DNA of 64,000 nt from contig JAUSEW010000002.1 in NCBI GenBank assembly GCA_030651475.1, positions 19,927 to 83,926 on the forward strand, in the 5' to 3' direction. Positions within the stretch are counted from its first letter, which is position 1. Every line of letters begins with the position of its first letter. The notes beneath the pieces are model-generated. The model was given only the letters and a program-made list of their open reading frames with translations. It was not told the origin of the DNA and searched no databases. This stretch comes from Candidatus Levyibacteriota bacterium. Its GTDB lineage: Bacteria > Patescibacteriota > Microgenomatia > Levybacterales > UBA12049. Position numbers and translations under genes: made by a program. Shown piece after piece: positions 3,650 through 54,135 of this stretch.

Positions 3650-3658
3650 TATAGTTAT

Positions 3659-5122
3659 ATGCAGAGTTCTTTTGTAATGGTTATTTTTGGTGCAACCGGT
3701 GATTTGGCGCAAAACAAACTTATCCCCTCGCTTTTTTCTCTTTTCAAACAAAAACAACTACCAACAGACTTTTTTATAGTAGGTTTTTCAAGAAGAGAAC
3801 TTAGCGACAGCGATTTTGGATCATATTTCAAAGCTCTTCAAGATAAAGAAGGATGGAATGAGTTTGCCAAACATTTATCTTACCAAAAAGGAAGCTTTGA
3901 TGACATAAGCGGATATTCAGAGCTTATAGATAAACTTAAAAAACTTGACGACAAAATCGGCGCGTGCGTAACTCGCTTTTTTTACCTTGCCACTCCTCCG
4001 GATCATTATCAAAATATTCTTAAGTTTTTGCGGGAAACTAAACTATCGGAGGGGTGCGGTCCCCACTTCGCCCCGCTAAGCGGGGCTTCGAGGAGCAAGC
4101 AAGAGAGTAAGTGGACAAGGATAATTATTGAGAAACCTTTCGGTAAGGATCTAGAGACTGCAAAAGCATTGGATATGAAGCTTTCCGAAGTCTTTGAGGA
4201 GAAACAAATTTTTAGGGTGGATCATTACTTGGGTAAAGAAACAATGCAAAATATTATTGCTTTTAGATTTGCCAATGGAATTTTTGAGCCGGTTTGGAAT
4301 AAAAATTTTATAGACCATGTGCAAATTACTTGGGCGGAGGAACAAGGTGTAAAAGAAAGGGGAAATTTTTTTGACGGAGTAGGATTACTTCGGGATGTCG
4401 GACAAAATCATTTGATGCAGCTTGTTACGGCAGTTGCTATGGAAAGCCCGAAGAGTTTTTCCAAAGAAGGAGTCAGAGATGCAAGAGCAGAGGTTATTAA
4501 AAAAATCCGTTGCGTAGAATCAAGTGAAGTTTCGAAAAATATAGTTAGGGGTCAATATGAAAATTATAGATCGGAAAAAAATGTAGCGAAAAATTCCAAT
4601 ACGGAAACATTCGTTGCTATGAAAATTTTTGTTGATACGGATCGGATGGCAGGCGTGCCTTTTTATATAAGAATGGGTAAAAAAATGCCCAAAAATTTAG
4701 TTGAAATATCTGTTGTTTTTATACAGACTTGCCACATTTTGTTTAAAGAATATGGCTGTCCTGAAATAGGAAATGTTTTGGTGTTTAGAATTCAGCCGGA
4801 TGAAGGAATTAATCTTCGCGTCATCGCAAAAAAGCCCGGCGCCAAGCTTTCTCTAGGAACCGTTAATATGAATTTTTCCTACGAAGATCAATTTAGGACA
4901 AATGGAGCAGATGCGTACGAGAAAGTGCTTCTTGATATTTTTGCAGGCGATCAAATGCTTTTCAATAGATCGGATGAGTTGGAAAGTTCATGGGAATTTA
5001 TAACAAAAATTTTGAAAGGATGGGCTAATTTAGGGGTTGAACCCCTAAAGTATAAGGCGGGAACTTGGGGACCGGAAGAGGCGGAGGCGCTAATCGAAAA
5101 AGACGGGAGGAAGTGGATATAA
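3659..5122 (+). CDS. zwf: glucose-6-phosphate 1-dehydrogenase
   Basis: IFGATGDLA NADP motif, IIEKPFG and RVDHYLGKE active-site motifs. Confidence 0.9.
   Translation: MQSSFVMVIFGATGDLAQNKLIPSLFSLFKQKQLPTDFFIVGFSRRELSDSDFGSYFKALQDKEGWNEFAKHLSYQKGSFDDISGYSELIDKLKKLDDKIGACVTRFFYLATPPDHYQNILKFLRETKLSEGCGPHFAPLSGASRSKQESKWTRIIIEKPFGKDLETAKALDMKLSEVFEEKQIFRVDHYLGKETMQNIIAFRFANGIFEPVWNKNFIDHVQITWAEEQGVKERGNFFDGVGLLRDVGQNHLMQLVTAVAMESPKSFSKEGVRDARAEVIKKIRCVESSEVSKNIVRGQYENYRSEKNVAKNSNTETFVAMKIFVDTDRMAGVPFYIRMGKKMPKNLVEISVVFIQTCHILFKEYGCPEIGNVLVFRIQPDEGINLRVIAKKPGAKLSLGTVNMNFSYEDQFRTNGADAYEKVLLDIFAGDQMLFNRSDELESSWEFITKILKGWANLGVEPLKYKAGTWGPEEAEALIEKDGRKWI
4049..4094. repeat. GC-rich hairpin element inserted in frame in zwf
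   Basis: ~46-bp GC-rich segment in an AT-rich gene with internal stem GCCCCGC-TAA-GCGGGGC. Encodes ~15 extra residues (GCGPHFAPLSGASRS) just before the conserved IIEKPFG. Confidence 0.6.
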
Positions 5123-20259: not shown

Positions 20260-20291
20260 GGATTACGTTGTCAGGATGACATGAAGAATAT

Positions 20292-21707
20292 ATGTTGAAA
20301 ATCTATAATACGCTAACAAAAAAGGTTGAGGAGTTTAAGCCGATTAATTCTCCAAAGGTTAATATCTATTCCTGCGGTCCCACGGTTTATGATTACCAAC
20401 ACATAGGGCATATGAGAAGGTATGTGGGTGATGATATTTTGATTAGGGTTTTGGATTTCAATAACTTCAGGGTTAAGCACGTAATGAATATTACGGATGT
20501 CGGACATTTGGTTTCGGATGCGGATACAGGCGAGGATAAGATGGAAAAGGGTGCCCGAAAGTTTAATAAGACTGTTTGGGAGATTGCGAAAATGTTTGAA
20601 GAGCAGTTTTTTGCATCCGCGAAAGCTTTGAATATCAAAAAACCGGATCTGGTGATGCATGCAACAGATTACATTAAAGAGCAAATTGTTTTTATTCAGG
20701 CGCTTGAAAAGAAAGGATATACGTATAAAATAGATGACGGGATTTATTTCGATACTTCGAAATTCTCAAACTACAACAAGCTTTCCGGTCAAAACCTTAA
20801 GGATATGAAAGCGGGCGCAAGAGTAGAGATGGTTAAAGGCAAAAAACATCCGTCAGATTTCGCTCTCTGGAAATTTAGCCCCAACCCTTCGACAAGCTCA
20901 GGGCAACCTAAAAGGTTGATGGAGTGGGAAAGCCCTTTTGGTATTGGATTTCCCGGTTGGCATATTGAGTGTTCAACTATGGCGATAAAGGGTTTGGAAA
21001 CCGAGACTTTGGATATTCATACAGGAGGAATTGATCATATTGCCATTCATCATACCAATGAAATTGTTCAAAGCGAGGCCGCAACAGGAAAAACGTTTGT
21101 TAAATACTGGATGCATCATAATTTTCTGCTGGTTGACGGGCAAAAAATGAGCAAAAGCCTGGGGAATATTTATACTGTCGAAGATATTATTAAAAAAGCC
21201 ATGCCTGCCGGCAGGCAGGGTTTTGAGCCTCTGGCTCTTCGCTATCTTTATTTGCAAACTCATTATCGGCAGGAAGCAAATTTTACATTTGAGGCTTTGG
21301 AATCGGCGCAAACCGCATTAAACCGCTTAAGGGAGAATATTTCCAATTGGGGAAAACCAAAAGTGGGATGCGCGGAATTTGAAGAAAGATTTTTGCAGGC
21401 GATTAACAATGATTTAAATATGCCGGAAGCGCTTTCTATCGTTTGGGAATTAGTGAAATCCGATTATCCGACATCTGCCAAAGCGGAAAGCTTGTTCAAA
21501 ATGGATCAGGTTCTAGGCCTAAATCTTGGACAAGATCAGAAGCTTGAAGTACCGGAAGAGATAATGAAAATGGTCAAAGAACGAGAAGAGCTAAGGAAGA
21601 TTCAGAGTTACCATCTGGCAGATCAAATGAGAGGCAGAATTAAGAAATTGGGCTACAATGTTTTGGACACGGAAAAAGGCTCTCTGGTAAAAAAGATTGG
21701 AAAATAG
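20292..21707 (+). CDS. cysS: cysteinyl-tRNA synthetase
   Basis: CGPTVYDYQHIGH (HIGH) and KMSKSLGN motifs. Carries an in-frame palindromic insertion. Confidence 0.9.
   Translation: MLKIYNTLTKKVEEFKPINSPKVNIYSCGPTVYDYQHIGHMRRYVGDDILIRVLDFNNFRVKHVMNITDVGHLVSDADTGEDKMEKGARKFNKTVWEIAKMFEEQFFASAKALNIKKPDLVMHATDYIKEQIVFIQALEKKGYTYKIDDGIYFDTSKFSNYNKLSGQNLKDMKAGARVEMVKGKKHPSDFALWKFSPNPSTSSGQPKRLMEWESPFGIGFPGWHIECSTMAIKGLETETLDIHTGGIDHIAIHHTNEIVQSEAATGKTFVKYWMHHNFLLVDGQKMSKSLGNIYTVEDIIKKAMPAGRQGFEPLALRYLYLQTHYRQEANFTFEALESAQTALNRLRENISNWGKPKVGCAEFEERFLQAINNDLNMPEALSIVWELVKSDYPTSAKAESLFKMDQVLGLNLGQDQKLEVPEEIMKMVKEREELRKIQSYHLADQMRGRIKKLGYNVLDTEKGSLVKKIGK
20882..20907. repeat. palindromic element (family 1) inserted in frame in cysS
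   Basis: AACCCTTCGACAAGCTCAGGGCAA encodes PSTSSGQ between the conserved ALWKF and WESPFG segments. Confidence 0.7.
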
Positions 21708-27323: not shown

Positions 27324-28109
27324 ATGACAATGCGACACATTGAAAGCAAAGAAGGATTAGGAGAATTCGTTGGGGATCCCAATGGCGATAAAGCCAAATT
27401 AGCAATAACTCTCATAGAGGGCGCAAGAAAATGGAGGGAGACATTTGGAGATATTTCTTTGCCATCTGTTACAGCTTCAGTTGAAGTAAAACCATTTTCT
27501 CCAGAAGCAGTTACTAATTATTGGCGAACAAAATTACAAGCAGATGGTAAAAGAATAGGACTTTCTATTTCCGTGCCAGATTGTAGTTGGACAGAAGCAG
27601 AAATAAGAAAGCCAATGGTAGATGTTAAAGGAAACGAAGTTCCTTCAATGTTAGTTTATGTTCCGCAAGAGCTTATGGGAAAAGAAGGATTAGTAAGATT
27701 AGGACAGATGTATCCAAAGATGAATAACTGGTCTGTTCAAGAAGACACTAGCGTGCAAAATAGTCCTGATGCAAACAAAAAAGGCGGATGGGTTAAAGTA
27801 GAAGCAATTGTTGATGCCCCAAATCTTAATACTACTCAGGAAGATCTTGAACAGCATGCCAAAGATAAAAAATATTTCGCACAAACATTAAATACTTTTA
27901 TTCTTGCTTCTCAAGCAAATAAAGATTTAACAGGACGTTACTTAGATGAAGGATCGACATGGTCTCGTTTGCTTGGTTCTCGTCGCGCGAGCGGTGTGGT
28001 TCATGCCGACTTCGGTTCGGGTGGGTACTTGTTTGTCGGTTGGGGTCTGGGTCCGCAGGGTCACGGTTCGGGCATAGGCGGGCGTTTTGAAGAAGTGAAG
28101 AAAGCTTAA
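27324..28109 (+). CDS. DGR variable (target) protein, C-terminal CLec/FGE-like variable region
   Basis: C-terminus carries the VR (..GSTWSRLLGSRRASGVVHADFGSGGYLFVGWGLGPQGHGSGIGGRF..). Confidence 0.8.
   Translation: MTMRHIESKEGLGEFVGDPNGDKAKLAITLIEGARKWRETFGDISLPSVTASVEVKPFSPEAVTNYWRTKLQADGKRIGLSISVPDCSWTEAEIRKPMVDVKGNEVPSMLVYVPQELMGKEGLVRLGQMYPKMNNWSVQEDTSVQNSPDANKKGGWVKVEAIVDAPNLNTTQEDLEQHAKDKKYFAQTLNTFILASQANKDLTGRYLDEGSTWSRLLGSRRASGVVHADFGSGGYLFVGWGLGPQGHGSGIGGRFEEVKKA
27971..28097 (+). repeat. DGR variable repeat (VR)
   Basis: 127 bp aligned to the TR without gaps. 26 of 28 mismatches are at TR adenines. Confidence 0.85.
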
Positions 28110-28861: not shown

Positions 28862-28911
28862 TAATTTGTAGAAATCATAGAATCTTTGAATAAGAGGTAT
28901 GTCAAAGTCAG

Positions 28912-28932
28912 GTGTGTGTGTGTGTGTGTGTG
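28912..28932. repeat. (GT)10 dinucleotide microsatellite between divergent avd and RT
   Basis: GTGTGTGTGTGTGTGTGTGTG. Confidence 0.9.
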
Positions 28933-28947
28933 AATATCTTTATCTGT

Positions 28948-30012
28948 ATGCATATTGATACATTCGACGGTGCCGAGCACCGCTCAGTATCAACCCTGAG
29001 CGAAGTCGAACGGGTTGATTATTCCAAGCTTATCTCAATAGAAAATTTATTTCAAGCATGGAAAGAGTTTAGAAAAGGAAAAGCTAAGCGTTTTGATGTT
29101 GCGGAATTTGAAAGGAATTTAGAAGATAATTTATTTGAATTACATTTAAAATTGAAAAATAAAAGTTATAAACATGGAGGTTACGAATCATTTTATGTTC
29201 ACGACCCAAAACAGCGGCATATTCATAAAGCAAGTGTTATAGATAGGGTAGTTCATCATCTGCTTTACACCTTTTTGTATAAGTTGTTTGACAGAGTATT
29301 TATTTATGATTCCTATTCCTGCAGACTTAATAAAGGAACCCATAAAGGAGTAAAGAGATTAGCGGAACTTACAAGAAAAGTTTCTAAAAACTATACAAGA
29401 CCTTGTTTTGCTTTAAAATTAGATATTAAAAAGTTTTTTGCCAGCGTTGACCATGAAGTTTTACTTACCTTACTTAAGAAAAAGGTTAAAGATAAAGATA
29501 TTATTTGGTTGTTAGTACAGATAATCAATAGTTTTTACTCGGATAAAGGAGAAGGGAAAGGAATGCCTCTTGGCAATTTAACCAGTCAGGTTTTTGCCAA
29601 TATTTACCTCAATGAACTTGACCAGTTTACAAAACATAAGTTAAAAGTAAAATATTATCTTCGTTATGCAGATGATTTTCTGTTTTTATCAAAGAATAAA
29701 GAGTTATTGTGTAAATATATTGACGTATTAAGACAATTCCTGAGCAACGGACTTAAACTTGAACTTCATCCTAATAAGATTATCTTTCGTAAATTAGAAT
29801 GGGGAATTGATTTCTTAGGCTACATAGTTTTACCTCATTATATTTTGCCAAGGACAAAAACTAGAAAAAGGATTTTTAAAAAATTAAAGGAAAATGTTGG
29901 TTCAGAAAACTTTAATCAATCCTTGCAATCCTATTTAGGATATTTAGGGCATGCCAGCAGTTTTAAAATAGCCCAATCTCTACTTTACTTTTACCAAAAA
30001 TATAGCTTATGA
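28948..30012 (+). CDS. DGR reverse transcriptase
   Basis: N-terminus ENLFQAWKEFRKGK resembles Brt. GNLTSQVFANIYLNELD carries the DGR SQ motif. RYADDFLFL is the YxDD motif. Start could instead be GTG 28912. Confidence 0.85.
   Translation: MHIDTFDGAEHRSVSTLSEVERVDYSKLISIENLFQAWKEFRKGKAKRFDVAEFERNLEDNLFELHLKLKNKSYKHGGYESFYVHDPKQRHIHKASVIDRVVHHLLYTFLYKLFDRVFIYDSYSCRLNKGTHKGVKRLAELTRKVSKNYTRPCFALKLDIKKFFASVDHEVLLTLLKKKVKDKDIIWLLVQIINSFYSDKGEGKGMPLGNLTSQVFANIYLNELDQFTKHKLKVKYYLRYADDFLFLSKNKELLCKYIDVLRQFLSNGLKLELHPNKIIFRKLEWGIDFLGYIVLPHYILPRTKTRKRIFKKLKENVGSENFNQSLQSYLGYLGHASSFKIAQSLLYFYQKYSL
28990..29018. repeat. palindromic element (family 1, inverted orientation) within the RT 5' region
   Basis: TCAACCCTGAGCGAAGTCGAACGGGTTGA. 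Confidence 0.65.
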
Positions 30013-52992: not shown

Positions 52993-54135
52993 TTATAATT
53001 CAATAAGTTCTCTTGAGCAACGGGTTAAGAAGCGGGGACCGGATTTTCCTAGGACTACCAAATCTTCAATTCTTACCCCTCCAAATCCGGGAATGTAGAT
53101 CCCCGGTTCTATAGAGAAAACCATATTTTCTTTTAAAATATCTTTCGAAAGGGGAGAAAGGCGAGGAGATTCATGTACCTCAAGGCCAATGCCGTGGCCA
53201 AGAGAATGAGGAATTGTCGGGAATCCTTTCGTAGTAATATAATCTCTGGCGATTTTATCAATTTCGGATGCCTTTATTGCTAATTGCTTCATTGTTAAAT
53301 TGTTTAATTGCTGAATTGCTTTTTGCTGGGCTTCTAGAACCGTTTGGTACATCTTTTTAAATTCTGCATTTGCAGAACCAAAGAAAACGGTTCTTGTCAT
53401 ATCGGAACAATAATTATTCAGTTTCACGCCAAAATCCAGCAATACGATTTGGTCTTTAGCCGTTAGTCTTTGGTCGCTAGCTTGATGGTGGGGGACAGAA
53501 GAATTTTTTCCAAAGGCAACGATAGGAGGAAAAGATATATTAGCCCCCTGTTTTTTGATAAAAAATTCTATTTCAAGGGCAATTTCTTTTTCACTTATTC
53601 CTTCTTTTATTTTCTTTAAAACATATTCAAAAGCTTTGTCTCCCAATTCGCATGCTTTTTCAATTTTAGAAATCTCATCAGGCGTTTTAACGCTTCGTAG
53701 ATTCGAAATACTTAAATGATATATATTATTAAAGTATTTTGACAGCCTTTTGTGTTCTAGAAAACTAATATTGTGACCTTCGAATCCTAATCGTTTTATG
53801 TTATTTTTTTGTGTAAGATTTTTTATTGCTTCTCCAAAAGAAAGTTTTGAAGAAATTTCAATAAGTTCAAAATCTTTGACTTGTTTTTTAACGGCTTCAG
53901 AATATCGCCCATCGGTAAGAATATACCCCAAAACCCCAGGGGTTCCGTGCGTCAACCCCTGGGGTTGAGCCACGATTAAAAGGAAAGCTTCCCGTTCATC
54001 CTTGGAGAAATTGGAAAATCCTGTTAGGTAAGTAATGTTAGGAACGGAGGAAATGAGTAGTCCGTCAATGTTCTTATTTAGCATTAAACTTTTTAAATTT
54101 AAGAGACGATTATTCATAAATTTAACATGTTTCAT
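52993..54135 (-). CDS. pepP: Xaa-Pro aminopeptidase (M24B)
   Basis: HGLGHGIGLEVHE and pita-bread fold motifs. In-frame palindromic insertion near the N-terminus. Confidence 0.85.
   Translation of the reverse strand: MKHVKFMNNRLLNLKSLMLNKNIDGLLISSVPNITYLTGFSNFSKDEREAFLLIVAQPQGLTHGTPGVLGYILTDGRYSEAVKKQVKDFELIEISSKLSFGEAIKNLTQKNNIKRLGFEGHNISFLEHKRLSKYFNNIYHLSISNLRSVKTPDEISKIEKACELGDKAFEYVLKKIKEGISEKEIALEIEFFIKKQGANISFPPIVAFGKNSSVPHHQASDQRLTAKDQIVLLDFGVKLNNYCSDMTRTVFFGSANAEFKKMYQTVLEAQQKAIQQLNNLTMKQLAIKASEIDKIARDYITTKGFPTIPHSLGHGIGLEVHESPRLSPLSKDILKENMVFSIEPGIYIPGFGGVRIEDLVVLGKSGPRFLTRCSRELIEL
53932..53966. repeat. duplicated 13-bp GC palindrome inserted in frame in pepP
   Basis: AACCCCAGGGGTT-ccgtgcgtc-AACCCCTGGGGTT encodes ..QPQGLTHGTPGVLG.. 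Confidence 0.65.

Follow-up and report, generated by a model that had tools for sequence, protein, structure and literature searches.

A likely REP-type hairpin element inside the pepP gene of a Levybacteria genome and its candidate RAYT-like transposase

Why does an AT-rich peptidase gene carry, in frame near the start of its coding sequence, a closely spaced pair of GC-rich palindromes? The question is raised by a stretch of 64,000 nucleotides (hereafter the window) from contig JAUSEW010000002.1 of a Candidatus Levyibacteriota bacterium. The gene, an open reading frame (ORF) at 52993–54135 on the minus strand, encodes a 380-aa M24B Xaa-Pro peptidase of the PepP-like type (hereafter pepP), with the Pfam domains Creatinase_N (residues 10–139) and Peptidase_M24 (residues 157–362). 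Its product is 100% identical to an NCBI entry (P0001) annotated as [quoted passage not shown] and its PDB relatives are Xaa-Pro dipeptidases (E about 1e-61). Considered as a whole, the palindromic pair is likely an intragenic hairpin element of the repetitive extragenic palindromic (REP) type, with a Y1/HUH enzyme resembling the REP-associated tyrosine transposases (RAYT) as its likely cognate.

In gene sense, the unit begins with arm 1 at 53954–53966 (minus strand; AACCCCTGGGGTT on the plus strand, AACCCCAGGGGTT on the coding strand), which encodes (Q)PQGL. It continues with a 9-nt loop at 53945–53953 (minus strand; CCGTGCGTC on the plus strand, GACGCACGG on the coding strand; family consensus GACGCACAA) and ends with arm 2 at 53932–53944 (minus strand; AACCCCAGGGGTT on the plus strand, AACCCCTGGGGTT on the coding strand), encoding TPGV. 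The loop codes for THG in the window and for THK in most orthologs; the translation of the unit is QPQGLTHGTPGV, in the context ..LIVAQPQGLTHGTPGVLGYILTDGRY.. of the protein. Together with ATCGTGGCTC preceding it on the coding strand, the arm-loop-arm unit makes up a 45-nt conserved core (53932–53976, minus strand). A sequence-only reading of this DNA had located the paired 13-mers at 53932–53966 with a separation of 9 nt, and these coordinates and sequences are exact. A repeat search confirmed that each 13-mer is self-complementary about its central base, and arm 1 with its neighbors forms a 15-nt palindrome, CAACCCCAGGGGTTG. The description of the pair as duplicated stands insofar as the 13-mers are a direct repeat with one mismatch, but it is incomplete, since each is also the perfect reverse complement of the other, so that the best fold is a single 13-bp stem with a 9-nt loop. 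The predicted fold energy is −14.8 kcal/mol as DNA (z about −3.7) and −28.4 kcal/mol as RNA.

This perfect stem is a short GC-rich stem-loop of the kind that characterizes REPs and REPINs. The contrast in composition noted earlier is also borne out, with 65.7% GC in the unit versus 34.7% in the rest of the gene. The pattern AACCCCWGGGGTT, with at most one mismatch, has two matches in the 64 kb, both in the pepP unit, versus a mean of 0.05 matches in dinucleotide-preserving shuffles, none of which (0/100) reached two. Only one of the unit's six reading frames contains a stop codon. On the plus strand, the tetranucleotide CGTC lies immediately 5' of the arm at 53954. No Rfam family matched at the site of the unit.

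The sequence-only reading had proposed an in-frame insertion, which an ortholog alignment would confirm or refute. Such an alignment was built from the best 120 database relatives, 57–100% identical to the window PepP, of which 117 are full-length and of Levybacteria type. In 80 of these 117, LLIx and YILTDGRY are joined by a turn of 4–5 residues, typically KNKQ. The remaining 37 have a 15-residue peptide here, AQPQGLTHKTPGVxG or a version of it, which lengthens the gene by 33 nt net (11 residues); the segment is thus not ancestral. The frame is kept in the filled genes; the expectation of a simple insertion fared less well, as this is not a clean addition of 33 nt. In the window, residues 55–70 (VAQPQGLTHGTPGVLG; 53926–53973, minus strand) take up 48 nt in place of the 15 nt (L/T-K-N-K-Q) of empty alleles, and codon alignments of close filled/empty pairs show GTG GCT ... 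NNN GGN (48 nt) replacing TTA/GCA AAA AAC AAA CAA (15 nt). No target-site duplication was seen at the pepP junctions (ATCGTGGCTC on one side, TTGGGG on the other), or in folD and leuS, which carry further copies, and no conserved target tetranucleotide is recognizable at the pepP junctions.

An AlphaFold2 model of the window PepP has a mean predicted local distance difference test score (pLDDT) of 91.4. Residues 56–69 form a low-confidence loop (pLDDT <60) that joins strands 50–55 and 70–74 in the N-terminal domain. The position of this loop between two strands indicates that the insertion site is permissive, and it is modeled as a disordered surface loop.

Two further observations concern the same site. 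In locus L173 (pepP ortholog P0095, 1501–2661; also protein P0120), the loop holds a different palindrome pair, two directly repeated copies of GACCTACGAGGTC that are separated by 11 nt and translated as RPTRSKASRPTRS; here the site was either struck by a second repeat type or evolved into one. Locus L004 (CAZYIC010000024.1), labeled as an uncultured gammaproteobacterial metagenome-assembled genome (MAG), has 38% GC and a Levybacteria-type pepP with the insert, and is probably mis-binned.

Is the unit confined to pepP? A motif search found it also inside folD and leuS, and related units in cysS, argS, secA and a UvrD-type helicase gene. A scan of metagenome contigs with the strict pattern gave 32 loci, nearly all of 32–40% GC, of which nine are pepP and four are folD (L122, L127, L130, and L131; Pfam THF_DHG_CYH). 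The folD copies, AACCCCTGGGGTT-GACG[CT]ACAAA-AACCCCAGGGGTT, combine the pepP arms with the same spacer, GACGCACAA(A). They are read in a different frame, as STPGVDxQKPQGF, and the copy in L122 also has in common with pepP the left flank CATGGCTC. Among the matches listed from the genome scan, a leuS gene from Microgenomates (L077; Pfam assignment) contains a unit with a 9-nt loop that agrees with that of pepP at six of nine positions, the translation being QPQGLTDKTPGVE. Sister units, in which the 13-mer arms are unchanged and the loops differ, occur in cysS, argS, secA, a UvrD/PD-(D/E)XK helicase gene, carB and intergenic DNA, many of them in metagenome contigs of one project (L120, L125–L128, L136, L139, L142, and L144–L149). 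Within stop-free frames of at least 200 aa lie 20 of the 28 unique low-GC sites. The strict pattern had no match in viral contigs, and base frequencies lead to an estimate of about 0.01 chance matches to the strict doublet in the collections. The idea of a family of palindromes sitting in frame within genes therefore holds, by virtue of the copies in different genes. A GC-rich stem-loop family is dispersed in genomes of Microgenomates (Patescibacteria, candidate phyla radiation or CPR), and the pepP unit is very probably an intragenic copy of it.

Several other hairpins came to light alongside this family. FolD orthologs (P0241–P0360) have a hypervariable loop after ..ILEKIx, which comprises empty forms, intact and decayed pepP-type units, a TSEV..TSEV direct-repeat form and long low-complexity expansions, together with other palindromic-looking inserts (TRILLARGWQGVSF; ATPSRWPNGLLEGGF). 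A loose genome scan for ACCCCWGGGGT with gaps of 3–25 listed mostly generic hairpins from many phyla. Among the matches listed, a patescibacterial MAG, H41-bin253_1, has a unit with a 12-nt loop, AACCCCAGGGGTT-TCCGGGCGTCTT-AACCCCTGGGGTT, in L023, L025, L068, and L096. These copies have common flanks, ACTTTCTCCTT.., and often lie at contig ends; they represent a member of the pepP-type family that is multi-copy and breaks assemblies. The listed matches also include in-frame hairpins with ACCCCWGGGGT arms in genomes of Chloroflexota, Thermoflexia and Anaerolineales (L010, L012, and L017; 58–61% GC). Their hosts are an amino-acid-binding protein (QTPGVSENPWGL, at an orthologous site in two genomes) and NAD-dependent DNA ligase (NPRGFPKPLGF), and the arm motif recurs in many of the listed Anaerolineae loci. 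A separate family in Clostridium and Clostridiaceae, again among the matches listed (L001, L021, L030, L045, L062, L064, L078, L081, L088, L101, L104, and L113), has the same arms and a conserved 19-nt, partly palindromic loop, e.g., TCATTCCATAATATGGAATGA, with several copies per genome in species of 28–37% GC.

Which enzyme could move such a unit? In locus L132, two units (CTAACCCCTGGGGTT-CGAGGCACGCT-AACCCCAGGGGTTA) with identical 13-mer arms lie on both sides of a 221-aa ORF that matches Pfam Y1_Tnp (IS200-like; 30.6 bits versus a cutoff of 23) and has REP-associated tyrosine transposase as its sole NCBIfam match (41 bits). Homologs in L117 (Patescibacteria; 62% identity to the L132 ORF) and L174 (Shapirobacteria) are bracketed likewise by CACCCC[W/S]GGGGTG units, so that the unit family flanks a Y1/HUH gene in three loci of Patescibacteria. 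The loop of the L174 and L117 flanking units, AGGCACAA, matches that of pepP, ACGCACAA, at all but one of eight positions, and that of the L132 units, GAGGCAC, resembles it. The transposase-like proteins have the HUH (NHFH) and R/G-Y-I/V-H-x-N motifs. Their family comprises 654 database matches, the named ones from Shapiro-, Gottesman-, Davies- and Levybacteria (Microgenomates). Each of the seven transposase genes inspected had clade-specific palindromic units on both sides. The possibility that the loop keeps one orientation with respect to the transposase gene was considered and dropped, as the loops of L117 and L174 are inverted between identical flanks. Because the units bracket its genes, the Y1 transposase family is the candidate cognate enzyme and, judged from sequence, may well mobilize the unit.

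In Levybacteria, RAYT-like Y1_Tnp genes (L152–L165) lie in a conserved neighborhood of Mur ligase, Y1_Tnp, holB-like and T2SSE genes, and are bracketed by a 58-nt nested hairpin, ATCCTTAGGTTCAGATACAAAACAACACCGGGTGTTGACTAGCTTCGAACCTAAGGAT, with the inner palindrome AACACCGGGTGTT (e.g., L158, 2880–3000 and 3690–3750). On the contig of L171, which has a filled pepP, a RAYT-like gene 4.3 kb away is bracketed by ACACCTCGGAGGTGT units.

The history of the unit within pepP shows what is conserved. The 45-nt core is identical in L167, L169, L170, and L171, whose DNAs were fetched by protein identifier rather than by pattern and whose proteins are 59–78% identical to the window PepP. The window copy departs from this common core solely in the loop, where AA is changed to GG and lysine to glycine. 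With the window copy included, identity over the core is 98%. At third codon positions it is 100% in the core, versus 42–47% in the 60-nt flanks, and identity stops precisely where the second arm ends on its 3' side. In L172, C5>T and G9>A have occurred in both arms. Of these four changes three are nonsynonymous, and all keep the self-complementarity of each arm and the full 13-bp stem. The same CCTC/GAGG variant is found in folD at the peptide level (STSEV...EPLRF). About two thirds of the filled pepP orthologs retain the intact peptide. Decayed versions occur in pepP (ARPLGSSHETSDIVG), where EVLG is a probable deletion remnant, and are common in folD. Invariant synonymous sites, decayed peptides and concerted changes of the arms indicate that the conserved entity is a DNA or RNA structure and not a protein. 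Intact copies are so exceptionally alike either because the nucleic acid is constrained or because they are young and renewed.

Filled orthologs appear at scattered places in the pepP tree, and the filled state is polyphyletic. Filled P0012 is 84% identical to empty P0088 and 71% to its nearest filled relative; the identity is 84% between P0013 and empty P0104 and 89% between P0003 and empty P0006. These identities and the tree reject a single ancient insertion followed by vertical descent. Between L166 (empty) and L167 (filled), RF1 is 99% and HisRS 95% identical, and PepP only 87%. DNA identity in this pair falls to 0.4–0.7 over some 10 codons before the site and 15 codons after it, versus 0.9–0.98 elsewhere in the gene, and a second close filled/empty pair has the same local dip. 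Exchange of alleles via short recombination patches probably accounts for the patchy filled state.

From these data the following course of events can be proposed for a REP-type element. A RAYT-like Y1/HUH transposase would recognize the hairpin on single-stranded DNA and would have copied the unit into pepP once. Copies in essential genes would persist only if they are in frame, free of stop codons and placed in a permissive loop. The filled allele would have spread between Levybacteria lineages, or have been lost to empty alleles, via short patches of homologous recombination. The arms would evolve in concert, each base together with its symmetry-related partners in the alternative hairpin forms, as a result of mismatch correction in these forms or of selection for recognition. 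The inserted peptide is most likely a passenger.

Several findings weigh against this reading. Only one copy of the unit is present in the 64-kb window, and copy number is low elsewhere, the 20 kb of L174 holding just the two flanking units, unlike classical REPs. No Y1 transposase gene was detected in the window by tblastn with five RAYT-like proteins. With three types of flanking repeat, blastn matched only the arms of the pepP unit itself in the window, where the palindrome ACACCSGGTGT from the flanks of the Levybacteria RAYT-like genes is also absent. The transposase scores of 34–48 bits are under the NCBIfam equivalog cutoff of 80, and a PDB sequence search with the transposase gave no match. 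The RAYT-like genes fetched from Levybacteria are flanked by AACACCGGGTGTT-containing 58-nt hairpins or by ACACCTCGGAGGTGT, not by AACCCCWGGGGTT, and the candidate enzyme for the pepP unit was seen solely in Shapirobacteria-type genomes. Replacement of 15 nt by 48 nt between empty and filled alleles is not predicted by simple peel-and-paste insertion, and the sharp identity boundaries in all lineages are unexpected from plain recombination.

Could the host itself keep the hairpin? The unit might be a cis-acting nucleic-acid signal maintained by the cell and spread by recombination rather than transposition, for example a double palindrome bound by a protein, an mRNA hairpin acting in translation or decay, or an uptake or recombination signal. 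Such a role would fit the complete third-position identity within sharply bounded 45 nt of otherwise diverged orthologs, the stability of the RNA hairpin and the polyphyletic distribution with its recombination patches. It would also fit the four concerted changes in L172, which preserve the self-complementarity of each arm beyond what the stem alone demands. The occurrence of the unit in unrelated genes, in different frames, in intergenic DNA and around transposase genes argues against it, however, as do its free decay in many pepP and folD lineages, the lack of a matching Rfam family and a density of about one copy per 64 kb, far below the numbers of uptake signals. A host signal is therefore unlikely.

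The identity of synonymous sites, the sharp boundaries and the alternation of filled and empty alleles between near-identical genomes, with neighboring genes 95–99% identical, would be accounted for jointly by a live CPR REP-RAYT system that re-installs the unit at the same codon of pepP and of folD in a homing-like, site-specific replacement rather than a one-time insertion; this possibility, too, is a doubtful one.

A purely local origin is still less probable. The unit would then have arisen within pepP by replication slippage or template switching (completion of a quasi-palindrome) and would be unrelated to the other copies. Half-copies adjoining the unit (AQPH-AQPQGL, AQPL-AQPQGL, and AHPV-AQPRGL) show that local duplication occurs, and the filled allele is a replacement rather than a clean insertion. 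Yet folD has identical 13-mer arms with the same 9–10-nt loop, in L122 even with the flank CATGGCTC, a close copy resides in leuS, the arms recur at the flanks of transposase genes, and the expected number of chance doublets is negligible at about 0.01.

Selection for a lineage-specific protein loop, with QPQGLTHKTPGV as the selected peptide and the palindrome as an incidental feature, is very improbable. The intact peptide in about two thirds of filled orthologs would be in its favor. However, synonymous sites are invariant, L172 accepted three nonsynonymous changes that keep base pairing, folD reads the same DNA in other frames, close relatives do without the loop, and the loop, modeled as disordered, belongs to the N-terminal domain, outside the catalytic Peptidase_M24 domain. 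Selection at the level of the peptide alone is rejected by the synonymous identity of the core, the L172 changes and the decayed copies. An assembly or sequencing artefact is scarcely credible, as more than 15 independent assemblies (NCBI, JGI, ENA, Logan) show the unit at the same pepP codon.

How does this REP-type element relate to described systems? Among the closest are the “REPtrons,” in which REPs or REPINs are combined with a RAYT (TnpA-REP) gene (Nunvar, 2010, PMC2817692; Bertels and Rainey, 2011, PMC3116915; Ton-Hoang, 2012, PMC3333891). As in these, a GC-rich palindromic unit of 20–40 nt brackets a single-copy Y1/HUH gene, the sequence of the repeat is specific to each transposase clade and, in Levybacteria, the Y1 gene keeps a conserved neighborhood. 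The differences are a CPR/Patescibacteria host, a transposase of about 225 aa below the NCBIfam RAYT cutoff, a very low copy number, many intragenic copies, arms that are each a 13–17-nt palindrome, and the absence of the conserved GTAG tag, which was looked for and not found at the unit. The extragenic location that defines REPs does not apply to the pepP unit, which lies inside an ORF.

Y1 HUH transposases are also known from the peel-and-paste insertion sequence (IS) family IS200/IS605 (IS608, ISDra2), with subterminal hairpins recognized on one strand, no target-site duplication and seamless excision. The Y1 HUH transposase, the hairpin and the lack of target-site duplication are common to the present case. 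Unlike these elements, the unit does not include its own transposase gene, and the transposase gene is apparently single-copy and syntenic. Miniature inverted-repeat transposable elements (MITE) are excluded, as pepP, folD and leuS have no target-site duplication. DNA uptake sequences (DUS) and uptake signal sequences (USS) occur in hundreds to thousands of copies per genome, about one per kb, and are excluded by the single unit (two 13-mers) in 64 kb.

In-frame palindromic repeats in housekeeping genes were reportedly described as Rickettsia palindromic elements (RPE) by Ogata and colleagues in 2000. RPEs are found in a reduced AT-rich genome and add translated surface loops to proteins, which some orthologs have and others lack; RPE-1 measures 100–150 bp. 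No transposase is known for RPEs. The pepP unit is likewise in frame, variably present among orthologs and placed at a permissive surface site. Its length of 35–45 nt, apparently unrelated sequence and Levybacteria host set it apart from RPEs.

Intragenic REPs with GTAG or CGTC tags have been reported to lie in frame, more than half of them as dimers encoding 20–30 aa, in repair and replication genes and tRNA synthetase genes (Di Nocera et al., 2013, PMC3733652). Their presence in unrelated proteins was counted against a peptide function, RPE-4 and RPE-6 of Rickettsia were equated with CGTC REPs, and no dedicated transposase was found for the CGTC REPs (PMC3733652). The hosts found here are similar, namely aminoacyl-tRNA synthetase genes, a UvrD-like gene, ligA, secA, folD and pepP, and most of the copies in pepP and folD have CGTC beside an arm. 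Phylum and sequence family are different, and CGTC adjoins the arm from within the loop rather than at the outer end. The present family brackets a transposase gene, unlike the CGTC REPs, and CGTC is missing from those flanking copies and from L133, L137, and L138. In the literature searched, neither REP/RAYT systems nor palindromes lying in frame are linked to Patescibacteria or Microgenomates. An element inside a gene that resembles REPs and RPEs and has a RAYT-like partner is thus of a kind already known, in a phylum for which that literature does not describe it.

Other parts of the window also contain GC-rich features. A perfect 16-nt GC-rich palindrome, TGCCTGCCGGCAGGCA, lies at 21202–21217 in a cysteinyl-tRNA synthetase gene (ORF 20280–21704, plus strand; Pfam tRNA-synt_1e), where it is read as ..MPAGRQG..; it is probably among the other palindrome families to which the sequence-only reading alluded. 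A 17-nt palindrome, GCCCCGCTAAGCGGGGC, occupies 4070–4086 in a glucose-6-phosphate dehydrogenase gene (ORF 3650–5119, plus strand; Pfam G6PD_N/G6PD_C), within a 63-nt GC-rich island (4041–4103). A 372-aa ORF (28894–30009) encodes a reverse-transcriptase domain (Pfam RVT_1, 81 bits) and is preceded, at a distance of about 800 nt, by a GC-rich stretch of 126 nt (27964–28089); together they may represent a group II intron or a retron-like element. Across the window, one tRNA was the only Rfam match above threshold.

The presence of such units in Microgenomates would extend REP/RAYT-type elements to the candidate phyla radiation. It would also mean that very small CPR genomes, like those of Rickettsia, tolerate selfish hairpin DNA mainly inside essential genes. 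For CPR annotation and phylogenomics, these inserts would matter as a source of spurious loops that look lineage-specific and of low-complexity, GC-rich peptides. With their many filled, empty, decayed and concertedly mutated alleles, the sites in pepP and folD offer natural data on how such hairpins are maintained and on how they enter and leave genes.

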